A stretch of DNA of 64,000 nt, from positions 599-64,598 of the forward strand of contig JAZDLQ010000070.1 in assembly GCA_043801855.1 (NCBI GenBank), in the 5' to 3' direction. The notes beneath the pieces are model-generated. The model ran no database searches and was not told where the DNA came from. It saw only the letters and a program-made list of their open reading frames with translations. Position numbers and translations under genes: made by a program. This DNA comes from an archaeon (GTDB lineage: Archaea > Nanobdellota > Nanobdellia > Woesearchaeales > GW2011-AR15). This document shows positions 29,250 through 61,168 of this stretch, piece by piece (the first letter of the stretch is position 1; the number at the start of each line of letters is the position of its first letter).

Positions 29250-30437
29250 ATGTATAAATCCTTAGGAGATCTTGCAAGAATGCTTTTGCCGCTCTCAAGG
29301 CAAAAAGAGTATTCACTATTAAGAATTAAAGAGCTAAATAATGAAGAAAATTACAAAAAAGCAAAATTTCTGATTAAAACAGGAAAAGCAGATATAACTC
29401 TTGAGCGATTTAGCGTTTCTCCAAAAATAGCTGAAGAAACGCTTTATCCTTGCCTTAAGGTAAAAAGCAAGGATGATGAAGTTAAGCAATTTATTAAAGA
29501 CTTAAACACTGAACTTGAAAATTCAGTTAAAGAAAAAGCATTTGTTAGCTTTTCAAAGCATCCGGAAATCATTCTTGATTACATTGCTCCAAATATTTTT
29601 GGACTTGATTCAATTAAAGAGGCAGTTGCATTGCAGTTATTTTGCACTGAGCCTGTTCACATGCTTTTGCTTGGTGACCCTGGAACAGGTAAAACAGAGA
29701 TATTAAAGTCAGCTTCAGAGCTTCATCCGATTTCTTCTTTTGGCCTAGGTTCAGGCATTAGTGGCGCTGGCCTTGGAGTTACGGTTAGAGGAAATGAAAC
29801 AGTTCTTGGGCTCTTGCCAAGGGCAGATGGCGGTCTTTGTGCTATTGATGAACTCAATTTAATGAAAAGAGAAGAATATGCATACCTTTATTCTGCGATG
29901 GAAAAAGGATATATAACATATAATAAGGCAAATAAGAACTTAAATGTAAAAACAGATGTCAAAATTCTGGCAACAGCAAATCCTAAAGGAGATAAGTTTG
30001 TAGGATGGATGCTCGATACATTAAGGGATCAGATTCCTTTTGACTCTGCTCTTCTTTCAAGGTTCCATATTGTTTTTCTGATCAGAAAGCAAGGTGTTGA
30101 AGGATTTTTGCATATAACAAAAAAAATAGTATCCTGTAAAAAAGAGCCTGTAAATAATTCTGATATTATTTTTATAAAAAATTACATTGAGTCAGTTGAA
30201 GACATAAAGTCAGAGTTTCCTAAGGAATTTGAACCACATGTAGTTAATTTTATGAAATATATTAAGGAAAACGAAGACAAATTTTTAATTGAAGCAACAC
30301 CCAGGATAGTTGTCGGATTTGTCAGGCTTTGTAAAGCAAGGGCACGGATGTATAAAAGAGATAAGGCGAATCTTGAGGACGTCAAAAAAATAAAGGAAAT
30401 AATCGAGAAATCCCTCTTCATCAGGGAAAAAAGTTAA
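29250..30437 (+). CDS. Truncated MCM-like AAA+ ATPase (no N-terminal OB/Zn domain)
   Basis: LLLGDPGTGKT (Walker A), SGAGLGVTV, CAIDELNLM (Walker B), ILATANP (sensor 1), LLSRFHIVFLI (Arg finger) all follow the MCM pattern. Only 395 aa. Confidence 0.75.
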   Translation: MYKSLGDLARMLLPLSRQKEYSLLRIKELNNEENYKKAKFLIKTGKADITLERFSVSPKIAEETLYPCLKVKSKDDEVKQFIKDLNTELENSVKEKAFVSFSKHPEIILDYIAPNIFGLDSIKEAVALQLFCTEPVHMLLLGDPGTGKTEILKSASELHPISSFGLGSGISGAGLGVTVRGNETVLGLLPRADGGLCAIDELNLMKREEYAYLYSAMEKGYITYNKANKNLNVKTDVKILATANPKGDKFVGWMLDTLRDQIPFDSALLSRFHIVFLIRKQGVEGFLHITKKIVSCKKEPVNNSDIIFIKNYIESVEDIKSEFPKEFEPHVVNFMKYIKENEDKFLIEATPRIVVGFVRLCKARARMYKRDKANLEDVKKIKEIIEKSLFIREKS

Positions 30438-35653: not shown

Positions 35654-37630
35654 ATGGTTGAGACAAAAATTACAAAAATTAGAAAAAGAGATGGAAGAAT
35701 TGTTGCATTTAATCCTGAAAAGATAACTGAGGCAATATTTAAGGCAGCGCAGTCTGTTGGCGGAAAAGACAAAGAGTTATCTGTAAAAGTGACTGGTCAA
35801 GTAATAGATTTATTAAATGAAAGATTTAAAGATCACGGAATTCCAAGTGTTGAACAGGTGCAGGATATTATCGAATATGTCCTTGTTGAAACAGGACATT
35901 ACAGGACAGCAAAAGCATATATATTGTACAGGGCGCAGCACAAACGGGCGAGGGAAGCAAAAAACACAATGCTTGATGTCCAGAACACAATCTCAGATTA
36001 TCTTGAAAAAACACATTGGGATGTAAATGAGAATTCAAACGAACAATACTCTTTTTCAGGCCTTTTGTTATATACAGCAGGCAAAGTCATAAAAAATTAT
36101 GCTCTTAATTATATATATCCAAGAGAAGTTTCTGATGCCCATGAAAAAGGCTATATGCATGTGCATGATTTAAGCCATGCTGTTGTCGGCTATTGTGCTG
36201 GATGGTCACTTAAAAAGCTTCTTGAAAGGGGGTTTGGCGGCGTTAGGAATAAGACTGATGCAAAGCCTGCAAAACATATGGATGTTGTAGTGCATCAGAT
36301 GGTAAATTATATAGGCTGCATGCAGATGGAGTGGGCTGGAGCTCAGGCATTTTCAAGTGTTGATACTCTACTTGCCCCATTTATCAAAGCAGATAACTTA
36401 AGCTATAAGCAGGTAAAACAAGATATGCAAAAGCTTGTTTTTTCATTAAACATTCCATCTAGATGGGGTTCGCAGTATCCTTTTTCAAACCTTACATTTG
36501 ACTGGGTTGTTCCAGATGACTTAAAAAGTGAAAAAGCGATAGTTGGCGGCAAAAAGCAGGATTTTACATATGCCAACTGCCAGAATGAGATGAATATGAT
36601 AAATAAAGCATTTATTGAAATAATGCTTGAGGGAGACGCAAATGGCAGGCTTTTTACATTTCCGATTCCAACATACAATGTTACAAAAGATTTTAATTGG
36701 GATAGTGAAAATGCAACACTCTTATTTGAACTAACTGCAAAATACGGAAGCCCTTATTTTCAGAATTATGTCGGTTCAGGGCTTGACCCAAGATCAATTA
36801 GGGCAATGTGCTGCAGGTTAAATCTTGACTTAAATGAATTAATCCAGCGCCCAGGCGGAACATTTGCAATGGGAGACTCAACAGGCTCGATGGGCGTAGT
36901 TACAATTAATGTAAATCGGCTTGCATATGAATCAAAAACAAAAGAGGAATTTTTTGAAAAATTAAGAAATTATATGACTCTTGGCAAAACTTCTCTTGAA
37001 ATAAAAAGAAAACTAGTCCAAAAAAATATGGATAACGGACTTATGCCTTACACAAAAATCTATCTTGGAACACTAAGGAACCATTTTTCAACAATTGGCC
37101 TTTGCGGCATGAATGAAGCGTGCTTAAATTTTCTTGGTAAAGACAAAGACATAACAACTGATGAAGGAAAAAATTTTGCTATTGAAACATTAAAATATAT
37201 GAAAGAAGTATTAAAAGAATTCCAGGTTGAGACAGGTAATTTATATAATCTTGAGGCAACTCCAGCTGAAAGCACAGCATACAGGTTTGCAAGGCTTGAT
37301 AAGATACTTTATCCGCAGATTATAACTGCTGGAAAAGATGTGCCTTACCTTACAAATTCAACACAGTTTCCAGTAGGAAATACTGAGGATGTTATTGAAG
37401 CTTTGGAACACCAAAACGATATCCAGCCATTATATACTGGAGGAACAATGTTTCATGTCTTCTTAGGCCAGAAAGTGTCAAGCCCAGAAGCCTGTAAAAA
37501 ACTAGTTAAAAAAATAGCTTACAATACAAAGCTTCCGTATTTTTCAATAACTCCAACTTTTAGCATATGTCCGGAGCATGGCTATATAGCAGGCGAGCAC
37601 TTCAAGTGCCCATATGATTCATGTAATTAA
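35654..37630 (+). CDS. nrdD: Anaerobic ribonucleoside-triphosphate reductase NrdD, main body (ends at in-frame TAA)
   Basis: N-terminal ATP-cone (IRKRDGRIVAFNPEKI) and the class III RNR barrel, including the RAMCCRL thiyl-radical loop. Terminates at ...HFKCPYDSCN-TAA, before the glycyl-radical motif. Confidence 0.9.
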   Translation: MVETKITKIRKRDGRIVAFNPEKITEAIFKAAQSVGGKDKELSVKVTGQVIDLLNERFKDHGIPSVEQVQDIIEYVLVETGHYRTAKAYILYRAQHKRAREAKNTMLDVQNTISDYLEKTHWDVNENSNEQYSFSGLLLYTAGKVIKNYALNYIYPREVSDAHEKGYMHVHDLSHAVVGYCAGWSLKKLLERGFGGVRNKTDAKPAKHMDVVVHQMVNYIGCMQMEWAGAQAFSSVDTLLAPFIKADNLSYKQVKQDMQKLVFSLNIPSRWGSQYPFSNLTFDWVVPDDLKSEKAIVGGKKQDFTYANCQNEMNMINKAFIEIMLEGDANGRLFTFPIPTYNVTKDFNWDSENATLLFELTAKYGSPYFQNYVGSGLDPRSIRAMCCRLNLDLNELIQRPGGTFAMGDSTGSMGVVTINVNRLAYESKTKEEFFEKLRNYMTLGKTSLEIKRKLVQKNMDNGLMPYTKIYLGTLRNHFSTIGLCGMNEACLNFLGKDKDITTDEGKNFAIETLKYMKEVLKEFQVETGNLYNLEATPAESTAYRFARLDKILYPQIITAGKDVPYLTNSTQFPVGNTEDVIEALEHQNDIQPLYTGGTMFHVFLGQKVSSPEACKKLVKKIAYNTKLPYFSITPTFSICPEHGYIAGEHFKCPYDSCN

Positions 37631-37639
37631 AAAAAATGT

Positions 37640-38143
37640 GTGTGGTGGAAAAAAAAAATGGCATGCGATAAAAAATGCGAAGTTTATTCAAGGATAGTTG
37701 GCTACTATAGGCCAGTTGACCAGTGGAATTTAGGAAAGCAGGAAGAATTCAAAGACAGGCTTGAATTTACAGAAACAAAAGCATTATCAAGCAATTTTAA
37801 GAATTCATCTGCACAGGAATTTGTTGATTGTAGTTGCGGAGATGGAACAATGCAAAATAAAATGTCTCCTACAAAATACAAAGTATTCTCGTTTCCAAAC
37901 TGCGATAAATGCACAACAGTAAAAGAATACTTATCAACAACAGCGATAGCTGGTGCTGATACTAACTTAGGAGATGATTTGGGTGTTGCAGAATTTAGGC
38001 AGTATTACAAGCAGGTAAAAGACCAACTCACAAGAAATGAGGACGGAAGCCTTCCTGTTCCAACTGTTTTGTTTTTTGATGCAGGTGAAAATATTATTGG
38101 GACAGCCCATAATGTTGAACAGATAAAAAGCCTTCTTCAATAA
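37640..38143 (+). CDS. NrdD C-terminal glycyl-radical domain fused to a glutaredoxin/NrdH-like domain
   Basis: Same frame as nrdD, 9 nt after its TAA. ACDKKCEVYSRIVGYYRPVDQWNLGKQEEFKDR is the NrdD Zn/glycyl-radical motif. FSFPNCDKCTTVKEYL...LPVPTVLFFD is a CxxC thioredoxin-fold pattern. The start could be GTG 37640 or ATG 37658. Confidence 0.8.
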   Translation: MWWKKKMACDKKCEVYSRIVGYYRPVDQWNLGKQEEFKDRLEFTETKALSSNFKNSSAQEFVDCSCGDGTMQNKMSPTKYKVFSFPNCDKCTTVKEYLSTTAIAGADTNLGDDLGVAEFRQYYKQVKDQLTRNEDGSLPVPTVLFFDAGENIIGTAHNVEQIKSLLQ

Positions 38144-45711: not shown

Positions 45712-46248
45712 TTAACAAAATTTTCTTGCTTTAATAATTCCATAAGCAACGATACCGCCTAACACTGCTGTTGTTAATTGCATTAGTCCCATTGTTGTCA
45801 AAAAGGCAACTGGAATAATTTTTAAGGTGACTAAAATATATGCACATCCAAAAAGAAATGCTGTCTTTAATCCACTGCTTATTCCGAGGCTGACAAAATA
45901 ATTGCTTTTTAGTTTGCCTTTGAAATATTTCATAGCATAGACAATTATTGCGTTTCCAATCCAGATAAACGGAATCATATAAATTAGGTACACTGTAAAA
46001 GGACCAAAAATTAATCCTCTTGTAAGAACACCCACGCTTGGAAGAAGTATTACTGGTAATGTTCCTTTGGCATCCATATAGATTGCACATAGGATAAGCA
46101 CTGTATTGATTCCGACACCAACCAAAATCTGTGGATGTCCAATTAGCAGCGGAAGCAAAAATGCTAATAAACTATAAAAAAACAAATGAACCCTATATTC
46201 AAGGTTTTTTAATTTTTCTACCTGGATATTAATAAAATTGTTTTCCAT
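45712..46248 (-). CDS. Hypothetical polytopic membrane protein
   Basis: Five to six TM helices. Lies downstream of the hydrogenase genes. No motif recognised. Confidence 0.4.
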   Translation of the reverse strand: MENNFINIQVEKLKNLEYRVHLFFYSLLAFLLPLLIGHPQILVGVGINTVLILCAIYMDAKGTLPVILLPSVGVLTRGLIFGPFTVYLIYMIPFIWIGNAIIVYAMKYFKGKLKSNYFVSLGISSGLKTAFLFGCAYILVTLKIIPVAFLTTMGLMQLTTAVLGGIVAYGIIKARKFC

Positions 46249-46257
46249 TTTTTTCGC

Positions 46258-46497
46258 CTAAATATACTCATTACTTCTGTCAACATACTTTGTATGCAGA
46301 AGTTCGTGCGCCTTTTGGCTACCATATTCGCCGACGTTCTCCTTATAGAAATTAATTACAGATTGGTTTAAGTGTGACTTTCTAATAGGAAGTGTTGTGT
46401 CGACTTTTACAACAGCTTCCATTCTCTTCATAAGTATCTCTTTTGTAGGAAAAGCCGGTTGTCCTCCTCCCCCTATACAACCGCCATAGCAGGCCAT
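46258..46497 (-). CDS. hydA: [FeFe]-hydrogenase HydA C-terminal piece (H-cluster L3 motif + small-subunit-like tail)
   Basis: MACYGGCIGGGGQP is H-cluster motif L3. Same frame as the upstream HydA ORF, separated from it only by TAG-GTA. Confidence 0.85.
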   Translation of the reverse strand: MACYGGCIGGGGQPAFPTKEILMKRMEAVVKVDTTLPIRKSHLNQSVINFYKENVGEYGSQKAHELLHTKYVDRSNEYI

Positions 46498-46500
46498 TAC

Positions 46501-47991
46501 CTAAATAAAGTGATAAGGTGATTTACCTGCTTTGATGTCATCCATTATCTTCCTTGCCTCAGAGAGAGTGTGAACTACACATATCTTGAGATCAATTCCT
46601 GCAACAGTTACAGTTGCTTCTTTTTTAGTCTCTAATCCCCTAACCTGTGTATATTCTATATTTTTTAGATCTTTGCCTTCAACCCAGTCAGCCGCAGTTC
46701 GCAGTGCTGCTTCCATGACGCCGCCGCTTCTTGCAAAAATTGCAGCGGCACCAGTTGATTCACCTAAAGGATTATCAAACATATCATCTTCAATCCGTGC
46801 AAAATCAATATTCATTTCCTTTATTAATTTTGCAAGTTCTACAGTTGTAAGGACAACATCAGTATCTCCCGTCATCTCAGATCTCTGGCATTCATATTTT
46901 TTTGCAGTGCATGGCATGACTGCAACCATTGTAATATCGTTTGGATCAATATTCTGCTTTGGCGCCCATACATGCTTTACAAGTGAAGAAAGCATTGACA
47001 TCGGACTCTTGCAGCTTGACAAGTGTGCAATTTGATCATAATAATATTGTTCCATGAATTTAATCCACCCAGGGCAGCAGGTTGTGATCATTGGCATTGA
47101 CCTATTCTCTTTTAGTCTGTGAATGAATTCATTTGCTTCTTCAACAATTGTGACATCTGCTGAAAAATCTGCGTCAAAAACATAATTGAAACCCATCATC
47201 CGAAGTGCCTTGACAATCTTTCCTGTGACTGGTGTTCCAGCTGGTAAGCCAAAGCATTCGCCAAGAGTTGCTCTTATTGATGGAGCAACCTGTGCAATCT
47301 TGATTTTTTTAGTATCATTCAAAACGTCTACTGCTGGCTGGATATCCGTATGCTCTGTTAAAGCGCCGGTAGGGCACACTACAACACACTGACCGCAGTT
47401 GATGCAACTTGACTCTTTCATGTTTGCGTGAAGTGGAGGTGCAATCCTTGTGTTAAATCCTCTTTTATGCAGACCGATTGCATGGACTGTCTGTACTTCT
47501 CCGCACATCTGAATGCATCTTTGGCATAGTACGCATTTATTATTGTCTCTTCTGATTGATATATTTGAATTGTCAGGTTCTTCAATTCTTCTCTCGCCGG
47601 AGTATTCATTTTCCTGTATCTGAAATTCAGCTGCATAAGTCTGCAGCTTGCAGTTTAGGTTTCTCTTGCATGTAGTGCAGTTAAGGTCGTGATTTGCTAA
47701 AAGAAGCTTTAGGTTTGTCCTTCTTGCATCTAAGACTTTTGGAGTATGTGTCAATACTTTCATACCATCCCTTACAGGAGTTACGCATGATGCGACTAAT
47801 CCGCCGCCTTTGGCTCCCTCAAGTTCAACAATGCAAAGCCTGCATGCACCGATTGCAGGTAGTCTTTCGTGATAGCATAAATGTGGTATTTTTATTTTGT
47901 TTCTTTTACATGCTTCAAGTAGGCTCTCTCCTGCTATTGCATCTATTACTTGATTGTTGACAATGATTTTTATTATTGGTTGTTCAGCCAT
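46501..47991 (-). CDS. hydA: [FeFe]-hydrogenase HydA, N-terminal 496 aa (ends at in-frame TAG)
   Basis: 2Fe-2S ferredoxin-like N-terminus and two CxxCxxCxxxCP clusters. H-cluster motifs L1 TTCCPGW and L2 MPCTAKKYE are present. It ends ...SPYHFI-TAG where clostridial HydA reads YHFIEVMAC. Confidence 0.9.
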   Translation of the reverse strand: MAEQPIIKIIVNNQVIDAIAGESLLEACKRNKIKIPHLCYHERLPAIGACRLCIVELEGAKGGGLVASCVTPVRDGMKVLTHTPKVLDARRTNLKLLLANHDLNCTTCKRNLNCKLQTYAAEFQIQENEYSGERRIEEPDNSNISIRRDNNKCVLCQRCIQMCGEVQTVHAIGLHKRGFNTRIAPPLHANMKESSCINCGQCVVVCPTGALTEHTDIQPAVDVLNDTKKIKIAQVAPSIRATLGECFGLPAGTPVTGKIVKALRMMGFNYVFDADFSADVTIVEEANEFIHRLKENRSMPMITTCCPGWIKFMEQYYYDQIAHLSSCKSPMSMLSSLVKHVWAPKQNIDPNDITMVAVMPCTAKKYECQRSEMTGDTDVVLTTVELAKLIKEMNIDFARIEDDMFDNPLGESTGAAAIFARSGGVMEAALRTAADWVEGKDLKNIEYTQVRGLETKKEATVTVAGIDLKICVVHTLSEARKIMDDIKAGKSPYHFI

Positions 47992-47992
47992 T

Positions 47993-49783
47993 TTAATTCC
48001 TCACTATAGCATCAAAAGCGCATACTTCATAGCATTTCCCGCATTTTACGCATTTTTTATGATCAATAACATATCTCTCTTTTAGTTTTCCTGTTATGGC
48101 ATTTACAGGGCAGTTTCTTGCACAGTTGCCGCACCCTTTGCATTTATCAGATATAAAATATTTTGTTAAGTTTTTGCATGATTTTGAAGGGCACTCTTTT
48201 CCAATAATATGTGCTTTATATTCCTCTTCAAAGTACAGTAGTGTTGATAAAACAGGATTAGCTGCAGTCTGTCCAAGTGCGCAAAGTGAATTGTCTTTCA
48301 CAAATGATGCAAGTTTTTTTAAAGTAGGAATTGTTGTCTCATCTGCAAGGCCATCTGTGACCTTTGTCAGGAGCTCAAGCATCCTTCTTGTACCTTCCCT
48401 GCAAGGAGTACATTTGCCGCAAGATTCTTCCTGAACAAATTGCATGAAGTACTTTGCTACATCAACCATGCAGTCCTTGTTACTCATTACAACCATTCCG
48501 CCTGAGCCCATGATTGCGCCAAGTGCATTTAGTGTTTCATAATCAACAGGTGTGTCTATTTTTTCTTTTGGAATGCAGCCTCCTGATGGTCCTCCTGACT
48601 GCACTGCTTTAAATTCGCTTCCGTCAGGGCATCCGCCGCCAATATCATAAATTATCTCTCTTAATGTAATTCCAAGAGGAACTTCCATTATGCCTGTTCT
48701 CTTAATATTTCCAGTAAGGCATATTGTGTGTGTTCCCTTAGTTCTCTCTGTTCCGACTTTTGCATAATTTTCAGCGCCAATTTTCATTATAGTTGAGACA
48801 TGGCAGAGTGTTCCTACATTATTTATTGCAGAAGGATATCCATACAATCCCTTGTCAGCAGGATACGGGGGCCTTGGCATTGGGTTTCCTCTGTCGCCTT
48901 CTGCTGATCTCATTAATGCAGTCTCCTCGCCACAAACAAATGCACCTGCGCCTGAGAAAACCTTGATATCAAAATTAAATCCGTCAACACCGAGAATATT
49001 TTCTCCGAGAAGACCGACTTTTCTTGCAATGTTTCTTGCTTCAGTTATAGTCTTTTTTGCAAGCGGTTTTTCTGCTCTAATATATATTAACCCGTTTTGA
49101 GCTCCTGTTGCGTATCCTGCAATGGTTAACCCTTCAATCAATCTAAATGGATCTGATTCCATTACTGTCCTGTTCATGAAAGCGCCGGGGTCTCCCTCGT
49201 CTGCATTGCATATGACATATTTTTTTCCGGGCTTGCTTGCAATAAAACTCCATTTCATACCTGTTGAAAAACCAGCGCCGCCTCTTCCTCTCAGGCCCGC
49301 TTTTTTCACATCTTCAACAACATCAAGCGGTTTTTTTGCCAAAGCATTTTTTAATCCGCAATATCCACCTCTTGCCATATACTGCTCCAGCTTTAGTGGT
49401 GATATTGTACCACAGTTTTCCATAAGCATCCTTTTTTGCTTTTTAAAAAAATCAATTTCTTCAAGAGTGTGTCCCATAAAAAGTTCTTTACATTCCTCGC
49501 CTTTTTTAATTGAGTCAATTAGAATTCCAACTTTATCGGTTGAGACATATCCGTAAATTGAGAAGATGCCTTTTTGCTTAACAGTTACAATTGGTTCAGC
49601 ATAGCACATGCCGGCGCATCCTACTCCTTCAACAAGCATTCCTAAACCTGCTTTTTGTAATTGTTCAAGGACAGGCACTGCTCCTGCAGCGACTCCGCAC
49701 GTTGCTATACCAACAGTGATTCTATCTCCTTCAAGCTCTTTACGCGCTTTATTAATATCAAATTTTTGTTCAAGTTCAAGCAT
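47993..49783 (-). CDS. hydB: HydB (NuoF-like NAD(P)H/FMN subunit of bifurcating hydrogenase)
   Basis: GLRGRGGAGFSTGMKW (FMN), NADEGDPGAFMNR, ESCGKCTPCREG, two C-terminal 4Fe-4S ferredoxin motifs. Confidence 0.9.
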   Translation of the reverse strand: MLELEQKFDINKARKELEGDRITVGIATCGVAAGAVPVLEQLQKAGLGMLVEGVGCAGMCYAEPIVTVKQKGIFSIYGYVSTDKVGILIDSIKKGEECKELFMGHTLEEIDFFKKQKRMLMENCGTISPLKLEQYMARGGYCGLKNALAKKPLDVVEDVKKAGLRGRGGAGFSTGMKWSFIASKPGKKYVICNADEGDPGAFMNRTVMESDPFRLIEGLTIAGYATGAQNGLIYIRAEKPLAKKTITEARNIARKVGLLGENILGVDGFNFDIKVFSGAGAFVCGEETALMRSAEGDRGNPMPRPPYPADKGLYGYPSAINNVGTLCHVSTIMKIGAENYAKVGTERTKGTHTICLTGNIKRTGIMEVPLGITLREIIYDIGGGCPDGSEFKAVQSGGPSGGCIPKEKIDTPVDYETLNALGAIMGSGGMVVMSNKDCMVDVAKYFMQFVQEESCGKCTPCREGTRRMLELLTKVTDGLADETTIPTLKKLASFVKDNSLCALGQTAANPVLSTLLYFEEEYKAHIIGKECPSKSCKNLTKYFISDKCKGCGNCARNCPVNAITGKLKERYVIDHKKCVKCGKCYEVCAFDAIVRN

Positions 49784-49784
49784 T

Positions 49785-50243
49785 TTAGTTCAGCCCTGCC
49801 AAGATTTTATCAATTTTTTGTTCAGTAAGGTCGCCATATACAACATCATTAATCATCATTGCAGGAGCTTTTGCACATGCACCAAGACAATTGACTCTTT
49901 GAAGTGAAAACATTGTATCGTTGGTAGTTTCTCCTGCCTTAATATTAATTTTTTTCTCAATATATTCCATCAGATTTTTAGAGCCTTTTACATGGCATGC
50001 GGTTCCTCTGCATACAGAAATCCTATATTTTCCTTCTGGGGATAGCTTGAAAAGGGCATAGAATGTTGCAACACCATAAAGTTTAGCAAGGGGTATATCA
50101 AGAGCCTTTGCAGCATCCTTTAAGTTCTCTTCAGAAAGATATCCGAATTCCTTTTGGATGTCTTGTAGTATTTCAACAGAATTTTTTGTGCTAATATGCT
50201 TTTTTACAATTTTTTCAAGCTTGTCGTCCATTCTAACCCTCAT
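49785..50243 (-). CDS. hydC: HydC (NuoE-like 2Fe-2S subunit)
   Basis: VCRGTACHVKGS ... CLGACAKAPAMMIN. Confidence 0.9.
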   Translation of the reverse strand: MRVRMDDKLEKIVKKHISTKNSVEILQDIQKEFGYLSEENLKDAAKALDIPLAKLYGVATFYALFKLSPEGKYRISVCRGTACHVKGSKNLMEYIEKKINIKAGETTNDTMFSLQRVNCLGACAKAPAMMINDVVYGDLTEQKIDKILAGLN

Positions 50244-50374: not shown

Positions 50375-51268
50375 ATGCATAATATAATTGAAGAGGAGAA
50401 GAATTATAGCTATACTGAGCTAATTTCACTGCTTTTGGAACTAAATGAGTCTGAATTTCTAAATGGCAAAGAGAATATTATTAATTATATTAAATTTAAT
50501 TCAGGTGAGCCAAATCTTGCAATAAGGCTTTCAAATATTAAGTATAAAGAAAATTTTCTTAAGCTTTTAAGAAAAAAAGAATTGTGTGAAATAAATAAAA
50601 ACGTCCAAGGTGAAAATAAAAATATTGTTACTGTTGGCTTAAACTTATATGCCTCGCATGTGAGACTAACACTTGACAAAGAAAAATGCATTCTTTGTGA
50701 TGTCTCACACACAATTTGTCCTAAAGAGGCAATTTCTGTAAAAGAGGACATAATTATAAATAATAAATGCATTTTTTGCGGTCTTTGCGTTCCGTTTTGC
50801 CCAACAGGTGCATTAAGTATTGCTAGAGATGATAAAAACACACCTGCTGTAATTGAAAACAAAAGCCTGCCTCTTCCATTTGATAGCGAATCTATTAATC
50901 ATATTGCAATTAAGCGCATTTTTGACGGTACAATTAGTGTTGACGCAGATAAATGCCCTGAAAAATGCGAGGAGTGCGTAGTTGCCTGTTCGACTGCCGC
51001 AATAAAGCTTGATAATAATAAAATAGTTGTAAATAGTAATGATTGTGTTTTGTGTGGCGCATGTAAAGTTGCTTGCCCAAAAAATGCGATAATAATAAAC
51101 AGAAACAGGCTTTTAGTTAAAGATAGCATTAGCTATTCAGCCTCTTTTAATGTTATTGTTGAAAAACTCTTGGGAAAAAACAAGCCAAATATAATGCATA
51201 ATGCAGAATCATTATACAAGATTACTACATTAATTAAAGACAGTGAGCTGAAAAAATATGCAGAATAG
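50375..51268 (+). CDS. Polyferredoxin-like 4Fe-4S protein
   Basis: Several CxxCxxCxxxCP-type motifs (CIFCGLCVPFCP, CVLCGACKVACP, plus variants). Overlaps the hdrA start. Confidence 0.7.
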   Translation: MHNIIEEEKNYSYTELISLLLELNESEFLNGKENIINYIKFNSGEPNLAIRLSNIKYKENFLKLLRKKELCEINKNVQGENKNIVTVGLNLYASHVRLTLDKEKCILCDVSHTICPKEAISVKEDIIINNKCIFCGLCVPFCPTGALSIARDDKNTPAVIENKSLPLPFDSESINHIAIKRIFDGTISVDADKCPEKCEECVVACSTAAIKLDNNKIVVNSNDCVLCGACKVACPKNAIIINRNRLLVKDSISYSASFNVIVEKLLGKNKPNIMHNAESLYKITTLIKDSELKKYAE

Positions 51269-53603
51269 TGATGAGCCAAGAATCGGTGTATTTGTCTGCA
51301 GCTGCGGCAAGAACATTGGCGGAGTAGTTGATGTAGCTAAAGTTACAGAATATGCTAAAACTCTTCCTAATGTATTTGTTTCCATGCTTAATATATATAC
51401 TTGTGCTGACCCAGGCCAAAACGAAATTAAAAGCGCAATAAAAGAACATAATTTAAACAGGGTTGTTGTAGCTGCGTGCTCTCCGAGAATGCATGAGCCG
51501 ACTTTTCGGAATTGTATTACTGAAGCAGGACTCAATCCATATTTGCTTGAAATGGCAAACATAAGAGAGCACTGCTCATGGGTCCATATTTGGGAAAAAG
51601 AAAAAGCAACAGAAAAGGCAAAAGAAATTGTTGCAATAGCTGTTGCAAAAGCAAGATACTTAAAGCCTCTTGAAAAATTTGTTGTCCCTGTAAAAAAATC
51701 ATGTATGGTAATTGGGGGCGGTGTTGCTGGTTGCCAGGCAGCCCTTGATCTTGCAAACCAAGGTTATAAAGTGTATTTGGTTGAAAAAGAGCCATCAATT
51801 GGCGGCAGAATGGCACAACTTGATAAGACATTTCCAACAATGGATTGTTCAATCTGTATTTTAGGTCCAAAACTTGTAGAAGTCGGGAGAAACAAAAACA
51901 TAACTTTATTGACAAATACAACTGTTGAAAAAGTCGATGGTTACATTGGAAATTTTAATGTAGAGACTATTACACTACCAAGGTACGTAATCGAAGATAG
52001 ATGCACTGGCTGCGGAGAATGTGCTGAGGCATGTCCTGTTATTATTCCAAGCAAATTTGAAGTTAACTTAAAGCCTCTAAAAGCAATACATGCACCTTTT
52101 CCTCAGGCAGTTCCTTTAAAATACAGGATAGATACTGATGCATGTATTAACTGTTACAAATGTGCAGAAGCATGTAAAGACAGAAAAGCAGTTGATTTTA
52201 CCCAAACAAAAGTAACAAGAAAATTTGATGTCGGAACAATAATTGTTGCAATAGGTGCTGAATCAATAAATCCAAAAATCAAACCAGAGTATGGTTATGG
52301 TAGATTTGAAAACGTAATTGATGGAATTGAGTTTGAAAGGATCATTTGTGCTGGCGGTCCGACTGGTGGAAATTTAGTTAGAAAAGATGGAAAGGACGCA
52401 AAATCATTTGGCTTTATCCAGTGTGTCGGTTCAAGGGATAAATCAATAGGCAAGGAATACTGTTCAAATGTGTGCTGTATGAACTCAATAAAAAACTCAA
52501 TGCTAATTAAAGAGCATAAGCCAGACGCTACTATTTACATATTTAATATGGATATTAGGGCCTTTGAGAAAGGTTTTGAAGAATTATATAATCGCGCAAG
52601 GGAAAACAGAGTAATTTTCATTAAAGGAAGACCTTCCCATATTTATGAAGGCAATGACAAGAACCCGGTTGTAGTAGTAGAAAATGTTCTTACGTCAGAA
52701 GTCATGGAAATAGAACTTGACATGGCAATTCTTGCGTCAGGCATGGTTCCTGACAGAACTGCTAAAGATATCGCAGAAAAGTTGCACATACCAAGAAACA
52801 ACGATGGCTTTTTTATGGAATCCCATCCAAAACTAAAACCGATTGATTCCCCAGGAGATGGAATATTTCTTTGCGGTTCTTGCGAATCACCTAAAGACAT
52901 TAAAAATAGCGTTACAAGTGCATCTGCTGCTGCATCAAGGGCAGCAATACCGATGTCAAAAGGAGCTGTTGAGATTGAAGGGATAACAATTCTTGTCGAT
53001 GAAAAAAAATGCATCGGCTGCGGCGCATGTGAACGTGCATGTCCTTATGGCGCAATGAAAATTGACAAATCCATAAAAAAAGTTATTCACAATGAAGCGC
53101 AGTGTCATGGCTGCGGCACATGCGTTGCAGAATGTAATTTCAATGCTTTGCAGCAAAAGCACTTTACTGATGAGCAGCTTTTAGCGCAAATTGATGTAGC
53201 GTTAAAAGACAACCCAAAAGAGAAGATTCTTTGTTTTGCATGTAATTGGTGCAGTTATGCAGGAAGCGATCTAGCAGGTGTTTCAAGATTTCAGTATCCT
53301 CCGGAAATAAGGATAATTAGGACAATGTGCTCAGGCAGAGTATCAGAAAAAATGATACTAAGAGCCTTTGAAAAAGGAGCGCAGATGGTTTGGGTTACAG
53401 GATGTCATTTGCCGACAGATTGCCATTATATATCCGGAAATCATTTTGCAAAGGCAAGAATTGAGCGATTGCAAAAAATACTCCCAAAAAAGTATAACAT
53501 TCCTTCAGATAGGTTAAAATTAAACTGGATTAGCGCTGCAGAAGGAAGCTTATTTGCAGGTTACGTAAAAAAGCTTGTTGAAGAGCTAAAGGAGATAAAA
53601 TGA
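51258..53603 (+). CDS. hdrA: Heterodisulfide reductase subunit A fused to an MvhD-like domain
   Basis: N-terminal Cys cluster VCSCGKNIG, FAD loop VIGGGVAGCQAALDLA, inserted ferredoxin motifs. The C-terminus ILCFACNWCSYAGSDLAG...IRTMCSGRV...WVTGCH is MvhD. Confidence 0.9.
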   Translation: MQNSDEPRIGVFVCSCGKNIGGVVDVAKVTEYAKTLPNVFVSMLNIYTCADPGQNEIKSAIKEHNLNRVVVAACSPRMHEPTFRNCITEAGLNPYLLEMANIREHCSWVHIWEKEKATEKAKEIVAIAVAKARYLKPLEKFVVPVKKSCMVIGGGVAGCQAALDLANQGYKVYLVEKEPSIGGRMAQLDKTFPTMDCSICILGPKLVEVGRNKNITLLTNTTVEKVDGYIGNFNVETITLPRYVIEDRCTGCGECAEACPVIIPSKFEVNLKPLKAIHAPFPQAVPLKYRIDTDACINCYKCAEACKDRKAVDFTQTKVTRKFDVGTIIVAIGAESINPKIKPEYGYGRFENVIDGIEFERIICAGGPTGGNLVRKDGKDAKSFGFIQCVGSRDKSIGKEYCSNVCCMNSIKNSMLIKEHKPDATIYIFNMDIRAFEKGFEELYNRARENRVIFIKGRPSHIYEGNDKNPVVVVENVLTSEVMEIELDMAILASGMVPDRTAKDIAEKLHIPRNNDGFFMESHPKLKPIDSPGDGIFLCGSCESPKDIKNSVTSASAAASRAAIPMSKGAVEIEGITILVDEKKCIGCGACERACPYGAMKIDKSIKKVIHNEAQCHGCGTCVAECNFNALQQKHFTDEQLLAQIDVALKDNPKEKILCFACNWCSYAGSDLAGVSRFQYPPEIRIIRTMCSGRVSEKMILRAFEKGAQMVWVTGCHLPTDCHYISGNHFAKARIERLQKILPKKYNIPSDRLKLNWISAAEGSLFAGYVKKLVEELKEIK

Positions 53604-54409
53604 AGCTTGGAATATCATATGTTATTGCAATTAAAAAAAGCGATTTTTTAATGGATAAAGAGCTAGGCATGTACTATTTATCTGGTCTTGAAAAATTAAT
53701 GATTATTAAAAAAAAATATGAACTGGATTGCGCAGAAATACTAATTGAGCCGCCGATTAACTCAAAATTTCTTAGTGATAATAAAGATACAATTAAAAAA
53801 ATTTTAGAGGATAATGTAATTACCTGTCACTTACCAATGTCTGAAGTTAATATGTCTGCAATGGATAAAAGCATCAGGGCATATTCTATTCAGGAGCTAA
53901 AAGACCTGATTGTTTTTTGTGAAAGTGTAAATATTAATACAGTTGTTCTTCATCCTGGGCAGTTTAATGATGTGCATGTTTTACTTAAGGATTATTTTTT
54001 TAAATATTTTAAAGAAACAGCGCTGGATTTGGTATCTTTTTCAAAGAAGCATAAAATAAAACTTTGTTTTGAAAACCTACCTAAAGGCAATAATTTTTTT
54101 ACAAAGATTGAAGATATGAAAATTCTTGCTGACCTTGGAGCCAATATTTGTTTTGATACAGGTCATGCAATTACAAATAATATTGACCCTTGCGAATTTA
54201 TTAAAAAAATTAAGATAAGCCACATCCATATGCAATCAAACAGGCTTGGTGATTTTGACAGGCATTTGCCGCTTGGCTCAGGAGATTTGGATTACAGGCA
54301 GGTGATACGCTTATTAAAAGAAATAAACTATGATAATTACATTATATTTGAGATGTTCAATGAAAAAGACCTGGTTCAGTCTCTGGAGGCGTTTAGAGAT
54401 GCCAATTGA
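53600..54409 (+). CDS. Xylose-isomerase-like TIM-barrel protein (sugar phosphate isomerase/epimerase or AP-endonuclease-2 fold)
   Basis: VVLHPG...CFENL...FDTGHA...HMQSN...IFEM is the pattern of metal ligands typical of this fold. ATGA-coupled to hdrA and overlapped by the hdrC start. Confidence 0.6.
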   Translation: MKLGISYVIAIKKSDFLMDKELGMYYLSGLEKLMIIKKKYELDCAEILIEPPINSKFLSDNKDTIKKILEDNVITCHLPMSEVNMSAMDKSIRAYSIQELKDLIVFCESVNINTVVLHPGQFNDVHVLLKDYFFKYFKETALDLVSFSKKHKIKLCFENLPKGNNFFTKIEDMKILADLGANICFDTGHAITNNIDPCEFIKKIKISHIHMQSNRLGDFDRHLPLGSGDLDYRQVIRLLKEINYDNYIIFEMFNEKDLVQSLEAFRDAN

Positions 54410-54824
54410 CTTTGAATTAAGAAATGAATTAATTAAAGAGATTCCGGATATTTTACGCTGTTTTCAGTGCGGAACATGCGTTAGCAGCTGCCCAAGCGAG
54501 AAATACGGCAAGAACTACACTCCAAGAAGAAAAATCCTATCAGCAACTTATGGCGATAAAGCTCTTTTAAGTGAAGAATTATTCAGGTGCTTGACATGCC
54601 ATTCATGCAACGAGAGATGCCCTCAGGAAGTCAATCCTTATGATGTACTGGTAAAACTGAAAAATTTTACGATAAAAAAAGGGTTTGCAAAGGAGAGCGA
54701 ATCAATTGAGCAGATATATTCAACAGGAAGCAGTATGCAATTTTCAGAAAGGGCAAAAGAGCAAAGGAAAGCACTTGGCCTTCTAGAACTTAAAAAAATT
54801 GAAGGTTTAAATGATTTAAAATGA
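54399..54824 (+). CDS. hdrC: Heterodisulfide reductase subunit C
   Basis: CFQCGTCVSSCP and CLTCHSCNERCP. ATG 54399 lies 8 nt after GGAGG. Confidence 0.8.
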   Translation: MPIDFELRNELIKEIPDILRCFQCGTCVSSCPSEKYGKNYTPRRKILSATYGDKALLSEELFRCLTCHSCNERCPQEVNPYDVLVKLKNFTIKKGFAKESESIEQIYSTGSSMQFSERAKEQRKALGLLELKKIEGLNDLK

Positions 54825-55681
54825 GATATGCTTTTTTCCCAGGATGTGTTGTTCCAAGCCAGATGCCATATTTAGAGAAATTATCAAGGGATGTTTTTGC
54901 AAAACTAGGGATTGAATTATCTGACCTTGATTTTTCTTGCTGCCCATATTCTGCAGTTAGAGACAAAAGTGAAACAGAATGGTTAACTCTTGCTGCAAGA
55001 AACCTTGCAATTGCGCAGGAAAATAAACTTGACATATTGACAATATGCAGCGGATGCGCCCAGACACTCAGTGAAGCAAACCACATACTTAAAAGCGATA
55101 AATCAAAATTAGTTATGGTCAATGAGAAGCTTAAAAAAATTGGCAAATCATATGATAGTTCAGTTAACATATATCATTTCATGCAATTGTTCGATAATGA
55201 AAAAAGTATTGTCTCAGAAAAAGTGATTAAAAAATTTACCGGATTAAAAGTTGCGACCCATACTGGCTGCCATATACTACGGCCTTCAAAAGTTATGGAA
55301 TATGATATTCCTGAAAATCCGACAAAATTTGATGAATTGGTTGAGCTTCTTGGAGCAACTCCAATATTTTATAGATCAAAAACATTATGCTGTGGCTATA
55401 CTCAGGTTACAAACCAAAAAGAGATGGCGACAGATATAATGAAGGAAAAGCTTGTTGAAGTCCACGATAAAGCAGATATGCTATGCGTTTGCTGCCCAAG
55501 CTGTTTGACCCAATACGATAAAAACCAGGTGCTTGCAAAAGCAAAATACAAACTTGACTATAAGGTTCCTGTAATTCACATCCTGCAATTGATAGGCCTG
55601 TCGATAGGGATGAATGAAGAAGAAGTTTTCCTAAAAGAAAACAGGTCATTGAATGAAGATATTAAGTTAAAATTAAAATGA
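54821..55681 (+). CDS. hdrB: Heterodisulfide reductase subunit B (two CCG domains)
   Basis: FFPGC...CCPY...CSGC and HTGC...CCGY...CCPSC. Confidence 0.85.
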   Translation: MRYAFFPGCVVPSQMPYLEKLSRDVFAKLGIELSDLDFSCCPYSAVRDKSETEWLTLAARNLAIAQENKLDILTICSGCAQTLSEANHILKSDKSKLVMVNEKLKKIGKSYDSSVNIYHFMQLFDNEKSIVSEKVIKKFTGLKVATHTGCHILRPSKVMEYDIPENPTKFDELVELLGATPIFYRSKTLCCGYTQVTNQKEMATDIMKEKLVEVHDKADMLCVCCPSCLTQYDKNQVLAKAKYKLDYKVPVIHILQLIGLSIGMNEEEVFLKENRSLNEDIKLKLK

Positions 55682-55950
55682 AAATAAACACTGTTTTTTT
55701 GGTGCCATTCGCTAAATTTGGAATAGGAGATAGTTTTGAAATTATGAATGACACAAAATTTATTGATTTGGTCATTTTAATCTCTAAAAAACACGGAAAT
55801 GAATTTGAAAAAATGCTCATTAGTGGTGTTAATAATGAGATACACATCAAAGATAATGTGATGATTTTGCATAAAGGAAAGACAGTTAAGTTAAGTGATA
55901 AATTAAGTGAAGGCGAATATGTCTTTTGTGCTGTTATTGCAGGGGGATAA
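55678..55950 (+). CDS. MoaD/ThiS-like beta-grasp protein ending in Gly-Gly
   Basis: 90 aa ending ...CAVIAGG-stop. ATGA-coupled to hdrB and directly upstream of aor. Confidence 0.55.
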   Translation: MKINTVFLVPFAKFGIGDSFEIMNDTKFIDLVILISKKHGNEFEKMLISGVNNEIHIKDNVMILHKGKTVKLSDKLSEGEYVFCAVIAGG

Positions 55951-55952
55951 AA

Positions 55953-57794
55953 ATGTTAGGGTATACTGGTAAATACATTGATGTAAATCTTTCAACAAAA
56001 AAGTGCGTTGTACTTGATTTGCCAGAGGATTGGCCGCAGAAATACATTGGCGGCATCGGATTTGGCATAAAGGTTGCCTGGGATAATATTCCAAAAGGAG
56101 TCGATGCTTTTTCTCCTGAAAATGTAATTTCTTTTTGGACGGGCCCATTTGCAGGGACATTAGTTCCGGTTTCTTCAAAATATACTGCTGTTGCAAAGTC
56201 TCCTCTGACAGGAACTATCGGTTTTGGTATAAGTTCTGGCGGATTTGGTGCTGAGCTAAAACGCGCCGGGTATGACGGCATTGTGATTCGCGGCAAAGCA
56301 GATTCCCTTTCATATTTATTTATCGATGATGACGCAATCATAATTAAGGATGCCTCGTTTTTGCAAGGAAAGACCACATGGAAATCAGAGGACATGATAA
56401 AGGAATGCCTTGGCGATTTATCTATAAGAGTTGCGGCAATCGGTTCTGCAGGTGAAAAACTTGTACGCTATGCCTGCATTACAAATGACAAAAATAGACA
56501 TATTGGAAGAAATGGATTAGGCGCAGTTATGGGCAGTAAAAATCTAAAAGCAATTGCGCTTAGAGGAACAAAGGATGTTAAAGTAAATGATTTAAAAACT
56601 TTGCTTGCAGAAGTCAAGCAGCTATACAAAGATTGCAGAGGCGAAAAAATGTATTATGGCAGGGAAGGAACACCAATTAAGATACTTGTCCATAATAAGC
56701 GGGCAGTTCTTGCCACAAATAATTCTCAGAAAATGACTTTTGATGGAGCAGATAAAGTTTCAGGAGAGCGCATGCTTAAAGAAAAAGTTAGAAAGATAAT
56801 TGCATGCGAGATGTGCGCTGTTGCCTGCGATCATGTTAATGTGATAAAAGAAGGTGAGTATAAAGGAGCAGTCGGAAGTATTGACTTTGAGACACTTTGG
56901 GCACTTGGCCCATTTTGCGGAGTTGACAATCTTGATGCGATAACTAAAGCTACGCAATACTGTGATTCTCTTGGCATGGATACAATATCAACCGGAGTTA
57001 CAATTGCATGGGCAATGGAATGCTATGAAAAAGGAATATTTACTAAAAAAGACACAGATGGACTTGAATTGAATTTCGGCAATCATGCTGCAATGGTTGA
57101 GCTTGTAAGAAGGCTTGGCAACCGTGAAGGTAATTTTGCCAAAATGCTTGGTGAAGGAAGTAAATATGCAGCAGAAAAAACAGGAAATAATACAATTAAA
57201 TTTGCAATGCAGATTAAAGGCTTAGAAACTAGTGCTTATCCTTTTAGACCGATGCAGACAGGTGCTTTAGGCCACGCAACATGCATAACAGGCGCCTTCT
57301 ACCAGCGTTCAGGAAGCTACCAATATGATGAAAAAGATGCAGTTGACAGGTTTTCACTTGACAAATCAAGGGGAAAGCTTGTAGCTGATGGAGAAGACGA
57401 TTATACTGTAATAGATTCTTTAATAATCTGCAAGTTTTCAAGGAGGATATATACAAACAAAGAAAAACTGGCGCAGATCTTGGGTATAGTGACAGGTGTA
57501 AAACTCACTTATGATGACCTTCTTTTCGCCGGAAAGAGAATTTATACGCTAGGGAAGTGCTTTAATATAAGACATGGTTTTGCAAGAAGCGACGATTATC
57601 TTCCAAAAAGGGCTTATGATGAAGTAATTAATGATGAAATTAACAAAGATGCGAGAGTTAAATTAAATGAGTGGGAAGATGCCCTTGACAGCTACTATGA
57701 ATATAGGGAATGGGACACAAAAACAAGCATTCCAAAAAAAGAAACCCTAAAAAAGCTTGGTCTGGATGATGCAGCAGATGAGGTTGGTGTGTAA
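55953..57794 (+). CDS. aor: Aldehyde:ferredoxin oxidoreductase family (tungstopterin) enzyme
   Basis: MLGYTGKYIDVNLS...YIGGIGFG N-terminus, CEMCAVAC cluster cysteines, and AOR-family length. ATG follows an AGGGGG RBS. Confidence 0.9.
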   Translation: MLGYTGKYIDVNLSTKKCVVLDLPEDWPQKYIGGIGFGIKVAWDNIPKGVDAFSPENVISFWTGPFAGTLVPVSSKYTAVAKSPLTGTIGFGISSGGFGAELKRAGYDGIVIRGKADSLSYLFIDDDAIIIKDASFLQGKTTWKSEDMIKECLGDLSIRVAAIGSAGEKLVRYACITNDKNRHIGRNGLGAVMGSKNLKAIALRGTKDVKVNDLKTLLAEVKQLYKDCRGEKMYYGREGTPIKILVHNKRAVLATNNSQKMTFDGADKVSGERMLKEKVRKIIACEMCAVACDHVNVIKEGEYKGAVGSIDFETLWALGPFCGVDNLDAITKATQYCDSLGMDTISTGVTIAWAMECYEKGIFTKKDTDGLELNFGNHAAMVELVRRLGNREGNFAKMLGEGSKYAAEKTGNNTIKFAMQIKGLETSAYPFRPMQTGALGHATCITGAFYQRSGSYQYDEKDAVDRFSLDKSRGKLVADGEDDYTVIDSLIICKFSRRIYTNKEKLAQILGIVTGVKLTYDDLLFAGKRIYTLGKCFNIRHGFARSDDYLPKRAYDEVINDEINKDARVKLNEWEDALDSYYEYREWDTKTSIPKKETLKKLGLDDAADEVGV

Positions 57795-57795
57795 G

Positions 57796-58281
57796 ATGTC
57801 TCATAAGATAATCGTCTGCAACACTGAAAAATGCACTGGTTGTAGGATTTGTGAGTATATTTGTTCTTCTGTTAATGAAGGAGTGATAAATCCACGAACT
57901 TCAAGAATAAAGACTATTAGGATAGACCCTGTTTTTGATCTAGCATTGTCTTGTAGGAAGTGCGAAAAGCCAAAATGTATCAATTCTTGTGCAAGAAATG
58001 CTATTTCACAAGATGAAACAACAAGGCAGATAGTTATTTCAAAGGAAAAATGCGATGGTTGCGGCTATTGCATCAAAGATTGTCCATATGGTGTTCTCAC
58101 TTTAGGGATAGATAAGAAAATTGCATCAGTTTGTGATTCTTGTACTGAAAAAAACGTAGGAATTCCTGCGTGCGTTGATTATTGCCCAACAGGTGCTATA
58201 AAATATCTTTCTATTGATGAAATTGAAGAAAAAGCTGTTAAGGACTTCCATTCAACACTACAGGAAAAATCAAAGGAATAA
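57796..58281 (+). CDS. 4Fe-4S dicluster electron-transfer protein (DmsB/AorA-like)
   Basis: CTGCRICEYIC, CRKCEKPKCINSC, CDGCGYCIKDCP, CDSC...CVDYCP. Confidence 0.8.
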   Translation: MSHKIIVCNTEKCTGCRICEYICSSVNEGVINPRTSRIKTIRIDPVFDLALSCRKCEKPKCINSCARNAISQDETTRQIVISKEKCDGCGYCIKDCPYGVLTLGIDKKIASVCDSCTEKNVGIPACVDYCPTGAIKYLSIDEIEEKAVKDFHSTLQEKSKE

Positions 58282-59749: not shown

Positions 59750-60909
59750 TAAAATAGAAAAGTTTAAATACTTTTCTGTCTTTTAAAAGACACAATGATA
59801 AAATATTTCCCTTTAGAAGTTCTGATATTATATGAAGAACAAAAGATATTTGATGAGACCTCTCCAAACAAAAAGAAAATAGAACCAAAAGAAAAAAGAC
59901 ATAAGAAAAAAATCAGATATCCACGGGATGAGTCTGCATATAATGCTTCTCAAGAAAATGAGTTTTTATTCTTTTTATCCGCATTGCCATTTGTAGTATT
60001 TTATTCCGTAACAAAAGCAGGTATCAAATTAAAAACATCTGAATTTAACAAATGCTTTGTATATTATATGTGTCTCTCAATAAAAGATTATTTTGGGATG
60101 AGTCTCCGCCGCTCAATTAGTCTTATCAAATTCATATTCTGGGCAATGAAATGGAAATACAAGGTGCCTTGTTTTAAGACGCTAAATAATTACGCGATGA
60201 AACAAGAAACATCGCATATCCAAAGAGTAATGCTTGAATATTCTGCAAGCCCTTTAAAACATATTGAAACACATTTCAATATAGACTCAACAGAAGAGTC
60301 ATTAATTACAGCATCAACATGGTTCAATTGGAGAATTAGAAGAAGCATAAAGAAAAAAGATCATCTCAAAGAACATGTAACATCTACTGCAAAATATAAT
60401 GTTGCAGTTGCTGTTGGCATTTCACCTGCAGGAGATGCAAAATTTATCAGACCGCATGTCAAAAAAATTATTGACCAAGGTTTTTCAATTAAACATGTGG
60501 CAGGTGACAAAGGGTATTTATCAAGAGACGGATGTAATGCAGTAAAAGAAGCAGGAGGACAAGCTAATTTTAAAATTAAATATAATACTGTTTCAAATGC
60601 AAAAAGTAGCCAAGAATGGAAAAGAATGGTAACTGCGCAAAAAGAGGAGAACATTGATGAAATTAATAATTACAATGTTCGGCAGAATGCAGAGTCAACC
60701 AACTCTGCTAAAAAGAAAAAATTTGGCTCTTGCATTAAATCTAAACTTGATATTACTAAGGAAACTGAAGCAATGGGAAAATGGTGTGTTTATAACTTAA
60801 CAGCGATATGCAGAGCATACTATGATAATGCTGCAGATGTAATGTATATTTCTAAGAATTTGCACATTGAAAGATTATTAGCTTACACATAGCCGGTTTT
60901 TCTATTTTA
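59750..60909 (+). mobile_element. Insertion sequence (IS4/IS5 superfamily), about 1.16 kb with 12-bp terminal inverted repeats
   Basis: TAAAATAGAAAA at 59750..59761 and its exact reverse complement TTTTCTATTTTA at 60898..60909 bracket the single transposase ORF. Confidence 0.55.
59795..60892 (+). CDS. DDE transposase (IS4/IS5-type)
   Basis: Candidate catalytic residues in NIDST, AGDKGY and YNVRQNAESTNSAKK, i.e. the Y-(2)-R-(3)-E-(6)-K signature. Confidence 0.75.
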   Translation: MIKYFPLEVLILYEEQKIFDETSPNKKKIEPKEKRHKKKIRYPRDESAYNASQENEFLFFLSALPFVVFYSVTKAGIKLKTSEFNKCFVYYMCLSIKDYFGMSLRRSISLIKFIFWAMKWKYKVPCFKTLNNYAMKQETSHIQRVMLEYSASPLKHIETHFNIDSTEESLITASTWFNWRIRRSIKKKDHLKEHVTSTAKYNVAVAVGISPAGDAKFIRPHVKKIIDQGFSIKHVAGDKGYLSRDGCNAVKEAGGQANFKIKYNTVSNAKSSQEWKRMVTAQKEENIDEINNYNVRQNAESTNSAKKKKFGSCIKSKLDITKETEAMGKWCVYNLTAICRAYYDNAADVMYISKNLHIERLLAYT

Positions 60910-60910
60910 T

Positions 60911-61168
60911 ATGGCCAAAATAATGATGATTTATTCTATTCCAGATGGAAAGGATGCTATCAGAATAACATTCAACAGAAAGCTTTTCAACTATAATCTA
61001 CAATCGCATGAAGGAAAATACAAAAAAAAATCTCAAGGCATTCTATCAAAATATGAAAAACCGTTACGCTCTGTTGTTATTTTTGATAAAGATAAATTGG
61101 CTGCGGTTGAGGTTCTTTGCTCTCAGCTGTCTATTGACGCTAAATTTTATCTAATTAAAGAGATTTGA
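60911..61168 (+). CDS. Small conserved hypothetical protein (paralogue of 59458..59739)
   Basis: 85 aa. See the paralogue entry. Confidence 0.45.
   Translation: MAKIMMIYSIPDGKDAIRITFNRKLFNYNLQSHEGKYKKKSQGILSKYEKPLRSVVIFDKDKLAAVEVLCSQLSIDAKFYLIKEI

Follow-up and report, generated by a model that had tools for sequence, protein, structure and literature searches.

Greening et al. (2024, PMC11216029) previously described group A3 bifurcating [FeFe] hydrogenases of the HydABC type in Woesearchaeales, as well as in five or more further DPANN phyla. In the known HydABC systems (7q4v, 8a6t and 7p5h), the HydA subunit combines a 2Fe-2S cluster, a His-ligated 4Fe-4S cluster and two ferredoxin-like clusters with the H-domain and a small-subunit-like tail. 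A different arrangement is found in the periplasmic HydAB of Desulfovibrio (1hfe), where the C-terminal belt forms a polypeptide of its own, so that the extreme C-terminus can evidently be supplied in trans; the boundary between its two subunits lies after the L3 motif, and all H-cluster cysteines are on the large subunit. The locus studied here shares with the HydABC systems the gene order, the HydA domain set and intact L1 and L2 motifs, and the operon itself is of an already known kind. It is unlike them in that the codon for the glutamate of L3 is a stop, and hydA as written encodes an incomplete HydA.

The three genes are located on the minus strand of the window (the whole 64-kb stretch of DNA that was analysed) in the order hydC-hydB-hydA, with hydA last and with gaps of 1 nt both between hydC and hydB and between hydB and hydA. 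The intact hydC gene (49785..50243, 152 aa) encodes a NuoE-like thioredoxin-like [2Fe-2S] subunit (Pfam 2Fe-2S_thioredx, E 4e-52), and hydB (47993..49783, 596 aa), which is intact as well, encodes a NuoF-like FMN/NADH subunit with the Pfam domains Complex1_51K, NADH_4Fe-4S and Fer4. The complete frame of hydA (46258..47991) comprises 577 codons and a terminal stop, and is interrupted once, at codon 497. When the frame is read through, Fer2_4, NADH-G_4Fe-4S_3, Fer4_Nqo3 and Fer4 are recognised N-terminal to the H-domain, the latter being covered by a single Fe_hyd_lg_C match (residues 231-509, E 1e-93) that spans the stop at residue 497 and is followed by Fe_hyd_SSU at residues 517-572. The top matches of HydA among solved structures were the HydA subunits of the bifurcating HydABC complexes 7q4v (E 8e-172) and 8a6t (E 1e-168), to both of which it aligns over its full length; these were followed by CpI and Thermotoga HydA. 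With its N-terminal 2Fe-2S and accessory 4Fe-4S domains, HydA has an M3-type architecture. Judged from these sequence matches, from the L1 and L2 motifs of the H-domain and from the adjoining NuoF-like HydB and NuoE-like HydC, the operon is assigned to the group A3 bifurcating [FeFe] hydrogenases; the one feature of this group that was not found is an intact L3 motif (ExMACxxGCxxGGGQP) on the polypeptide that carries L1 and L2.

The hydCBA operon is divergent from an adjoining polyferredoxin/HdrA/HdrC/HdrB/AOR operon (50375-58281, plus strand), and the same arrangement is kept in a relative with 74% identity (locus L081, 1-5620), in which HdrA, at 85% identity, is the best-conserved gene of the neighbourhood. 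This conserved adjacency suggests a functional link between the hydCBA and Hdr/AOR redox modules. Directly downstream of hydA is a gene for a 178-aa multi-pass membrane protein without a Pfam match (45712-46248, minus strand), the place of which is taken in the relative by a gene with a tRNA-binding domain. The window is archaeal, with genes for Orc1/Cdc6, PolD DP1 and DP2, MCM, aIF2-beta and RNase P p30, and its nearest matches among genomes are Woesearchaeota MAGs, in line with a Woesearchaeota-like DPANN archaeon as host. Besides the full-length MCM (14621-16642), the window encodes a short MCM paralogue (29250-30437, plus strand; 395 aa) that has the P-loop and lid and is devoid of the N-terminal and OB domains; mini-MCMs of this type are a frequent cargo of mobile elements.

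The interruption of hydA is a single-site fact in the deposited sequence and not a statistical pattern. At this site the minus strand reads TAT CAC TTT ATT TAG GTA ATG GCC TGC (Y H F I * V M A C), with the TAG at 46503..46501 and the next in-frame ATG at 46497..46495, 3 nt after the stop; past the TAG, which stands two codons ahead of the L3 methionine and four ahead of the first L3 cysteine, the motif resumes as VMACYGGCIGGGGQP. The frame is divided in this way into a TAG-terminated N piece of 496 aa (46501..47991), which carries L1 (TTCCPGW) and L2 (MPCTAKKYE) and has no L3, and a C piece of 79 aa (46258..46497), an ORF starting MACYGGCIGGGGQP that holds the two L3 cysteines together with the small-subunit-like domain. 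A preliminary description of this DNA had proposed that an otherwise full-length gene is split into 496 + 79 aa by a stop replacing the conserved glutamate right before L3, and both points are borne out, the former by the ORFs and the spanning Pfam match, and the latter by the relatives, in which the residue is glutamate in 119 of 119 proteins and the codon specifies glutamate in all 69 genome loci (46 GAA, 23 GAG). By motif numbering, the replaced residue corresponds to Glu495 of CpI and the next methionine to Met497, the H-cluster cysteines of CpI being residues 300, 355, 499 and 503. In the nearest syntenic relative, the corresponding stretch is CAT TTC ATC GAG ATA ATG GCC, as against CAC TTT ATT TAG GTA ATG GCC in the window; since this relative has GAG, one G-to-T step accounts for the TAG, in agreement with the change that had been proposed.

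Read-through or recoding of the TAG by a suppressor tRNA, by pyrrolysine or by context-dependent near-cognate decoding would yield a full-length HydA, and would be in keeping with a frame that is open and conserved on either side of the stop. The hydA TAG is also the sole one among the 11 of the window to be followed by G, and its context is thus unlike that of the real terminators; this G, however, is dictated by the Val codon. The window has 63 non-overlapping ORFs that reach 100 aa or more, and their stops consist of 37 TAA, 15 TGA and 11 TAG. TAG is the regular terminator of ten other long ORFs, several of them with tandem stops (immediate in two), and read-through would gain 0-26 codons in nine of the ten. 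A second in-frame TAG, at 60890-60892, which has 91 further open codons behind it, was considered and rejected: it ends an ORF of 365 aa (59795-60892, plus strand) that has no Pfam match and is transposase-like by eye, no Pfam domain runs across it, and the ORF that follows in the same frame (60911-61168, plus strand; 85 aa) is a separate one with its own ATG at 60911. Pfam checks revealed no in-frame TAG in any other conserved gene of the 64-kb window, in which neither tRNA genes (ARAGORN) nor pyl-like genes (Pfam) were detected. In a code with reassigned TAG, this codon would be rare as a terminator and would recur in frame at conserved positions, and the window has neither property; TAG is an ordinary stop in this organism. 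As, in addition, a bulky derivative of lysine such as pyrrolysine is not plausible where the residue is invariably acidic, and TAG occurs at the L3 site in none of the relatives (69 loci, 119 proteins), recoding is the least probable of the explanations considered here.

The second possibility is that hydA has evolved into two genes, and the same break would then be expected in related genomes, for which the preliminary description had suggested a comparison. All 119 non-self top matches to HydA are full length (554-619 aa), and the break was found in 0 of the 119 proteins and in 0 of the 69 loci. A search with the 79-aa piece of the 5.8-billion-protein collection, in which only proteins of 43-138 aa were admitted, gave seven matches and no true case. 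Two of these short proteins (P0122 and P0123) begin exactly MACYGGC and were considered as independent occurrences of the same split, but both have an intact GAG upstream: at locus L085, where the ORF begins at the contig edge, the upstream sequence is CAT TTT ATA GAG ATA ATG, and locus L086 (0.9x coverage) reads ATC GAG ATT ATG GCT. Two further matches come from hydA genes broken in other ways, namely a frameshifted hydA with overlapping ORFs of 491 aa and 134 aa on a 188-kb contig (L167, 1563-3405) and an isolated C-terminal remnant of 127 aa with MCC instead of MAC (L168, 3001-3384), which indicates that hydA genes break sporadically and at different sites.

For a two-piece enzyme, translation would re-initiate at the ATG 3 nt after the stop, and the 79-aa and 496-aa pieces would together form an active H-domain, much as the large and small subunits of Desulfovibrio HydAB do. 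Some re-initiation is mechanistically possible, as the ATG is in frame and so close to the stop in an operon with 1-nt gaps elsewhere, and archaea are known to use termination-reinitiation coupling. It also speaks for such an enzyme that the C piece keeps all 22 of its invariant columns and that a separate small subunit is known from other [FeFe] hydrogenases (1hfe_L). On the other side, the break is found on this contig alone, and no start signals of the C piece's own (a spacer, a well-placed SD or a start codon outside the motif) were identified in the 3-nt gap and its surroundings. The ATG is the conserved methionine of ExMAC, and its presence is not evidence of adaptation; SD-like motifs of the window are mostly at -8 to -13, whereas the only one before this ATG is AGGT from -5. 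An internal archaeal promoter was also considered and rejected, as the sole TATA-like string, TTTATTTA, is by eye 5-12 nt before the ATG, which is too close for leaderless initiation.

The predicted structure likewise argues against an evolved boundary at this position. In a confident AlphaFold2 model of the read-through HydA (pLDDT 87 overall, about 92-94 around the site), residue 497 is placed inside a beta-strand (495-498) that leads straight into Met-Ala-Cys, and is in neither a loop nor a linker. The large subunit 1hfe_L aligns only to residues 146-517 of the query, and the break in the window is ~20 residues upstream of the Desulfovibrio boundary, on the wrong side of L3, where it would assign Cys499 and Cys503 to the small piece and leave the invariant glutamate on neither. 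According to the N-terminal methionine excision rule, a methionine before alanine is usually removed, and the initiator methionine of a re-initiated C piece, (M)ACYGGCIGGGGQPAFPTK, would probably be cleaved off by methionine aminopeptidase. The residue so lost would be the equivalent of CpI Met497, which is needed for proper [2Fe] insertion, the M497L variant of CpI being without a properly integrated [2Fe] subcluster (PMC10055695). A functional two-piece hydrogenase thus appears improbable.

An internal control is provided by nrdD, the stop of which is 9 kb from that of hydA. The body of nrdD (35654-37630, plus strand) ends with TAA at 37628-37630, behind the Zn ribbon's first Cys pair and within one continuous NRDD domain match (Pfam), and is followed by a second ORF (37659-38143, plus strand) with a probable ATG at 37659 and GGTGG ~10 nt upstream, which encodes the remaining Cys pair along with the glycyl-radical motif RIVGYY and then ~125 residues without a Pfam match. 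Among 80 related metagenome loci, nrdD is split at the same place in 30 and fused in 40. In the split loci the frame of the second part may or may not be that of the first, the spacers measure -26 to +209 nt, the SDs are of the GGAGG/GGTGA type, and a new methionine stands ahead of both the second Cys pair and the glycyl-radical motif. From this comparison of loci, the nrdD split is seen to be a natural and widespread two-gene architecture, and the idea that the in-frame TAA signals a lesion-prone assembly or genome-wide suppression was rejected. The two genes are alike in encoding O2-sensitive enzymes with an in-frame stop shortly before the C-terminal catalytic module, but the spacer, the SD, the new methionine and the recurrence (30/80) are found only in nrdD, and their absence from hydA is a further point against a two-piece hydrogenase. 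By these sequence comparisons, the hydA stop is most likely neither an evolved split nor a recoding site. It has to be considered quite improbable that the TAG is tolerated, with a 79-aa subunit acting in trans with the 496-aa body and the [4Fe-4S] cluster of the H-cluster ligated across two polypeptides; by analogy with the detached glycyl-radical piece of nrdD, such a subunit might possibly be an exchangeable oxygen-damaged module.

The conservation of hydA on both sides of the TAG bears on the age of the lesion. For the C piece a conserved-column test was chosen over dN/dS, because a protein identity of 74% implies saturation of the synonymous sites. In comparison with the 119 relatives, the N piece (496 codons before the TAG) keeps 98 of 100 invariant and 194 of 211 near-invariant columns, and the C piece (79 codons after it) keeps 22 of 22 invariant columns and 33 of the 37 that are at least 90% conserved; the ratio of C-piece to N-piece identity is 0.92 for the window, versus 0.97 +/- 0.07 among relatives. 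Apart from the HydA of the window itself, the closest HydA of the 5.8-billion-protein collection has 74% identity (P0002; loci L081-L084) and comes from a relative that is syntenic with the window on both sides, the divergent Hdr/AOR operon included; identities to L081 amount to 74% before the TAG (N piece) and 69% after it (C piece), as well as 74% in hydB and 65% in hydC. Typical signs of a decayed pseudogene, such as several lesions or the loss of conserved residues after the stop, were not found in hydA against the 119 relatives, and the other signs of decay that the preliminary description had envisaged did not materialise. With no decay in hydA, hydB or hydC, the TAG is either very recent or absent from the cells.

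If the TAG were absent from the cells, the organism would have GAG, and the T would stem from sequencing, polishing or strain-mixing in the assembly. Such a consensus or base-call error would be consistent with a single-base, zero-length change in a hydA without any other defect and with the expected importance of the gene, and an assembly artefact does break hydB in one contig of the relative (L083, 6202-7997), where two ORFs result from a scaffolding gap in which 2 bases are replaced by 10 N. However, substitution errors rarely get into the consensus of a 65-kb contig. All other conserved genes of the window that were checked are unbroken, among them PolD DP2 (1174 aa), MCM, Orc1/Cdc6, hydB and HdrA, and the nrdD stop, an apparent second lesion, proved to be a natural split. 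The clean local assembly points, if weakly, to a real allele, and an error can be regarded as unlikely but still a credible alternative. Of the four explanations put forward in the preliminary description, two (a recent nonsense mutation and a consensus error) are compatible with the evidence as a whole, and the two-piece enzyme and recoding are disfavoured.

The best explanation, to which a probability of roughly 0.55 may be given, is that a genuine loss-of-function allele of hydA, of very recent origin and possibly still polymorphic, was caught by the metagenome consensus. A G-to-T substitution would have converted the GAG glutamate codon of the L3 H-cluster motif into TAG, and with TAG as an ordinary terminator translation would stop after residue 496. 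The truncated HydA would lose two of the four H-cluster cysteines (Cys499 and Cys503 of CpI, in motif numbering) together with the C-terminal small-subunit-like belt; with these parts lost no catalysis is expected of it, and we infer that it is inactive. The allele would be present in cells, beyond the consensus alone. HydABC, encoded beside the conserved Hdr/AOR operon, probably has a central role in the redox balance of this fermenter; losing it should carry a high cost, which is easier to reconcile with a transient variant or an error than with fixation of the allele. Ordinary nonsense alleles and pseudogenes in MAGs show the same picture of a single-step change at a conserved codon, on one contig and without compensating features, and the hydA of the window differs from them solely in its notable position near L3.

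It would be an over-reading to see nrdD and hydA as following one pattern, in which O2-sensitive enzymes are cut ahead of the catalytic tail, as the nrdD split is evolved and the hydA stop is a one-off lesion; a detachable glycyl-radical subunit of class III RNR seems to merit separate study. If the TAG were fixed and the enzyme active, it would represent a hydrogenase with its H-cluster bound across two subunits. For the annotation of this MAG, hydA should be flagged as interrupted (a pseudogene or a possible error), and crediting this archaeon with HydABC-based H2 production needs a caveat in metabolic reconstructions.
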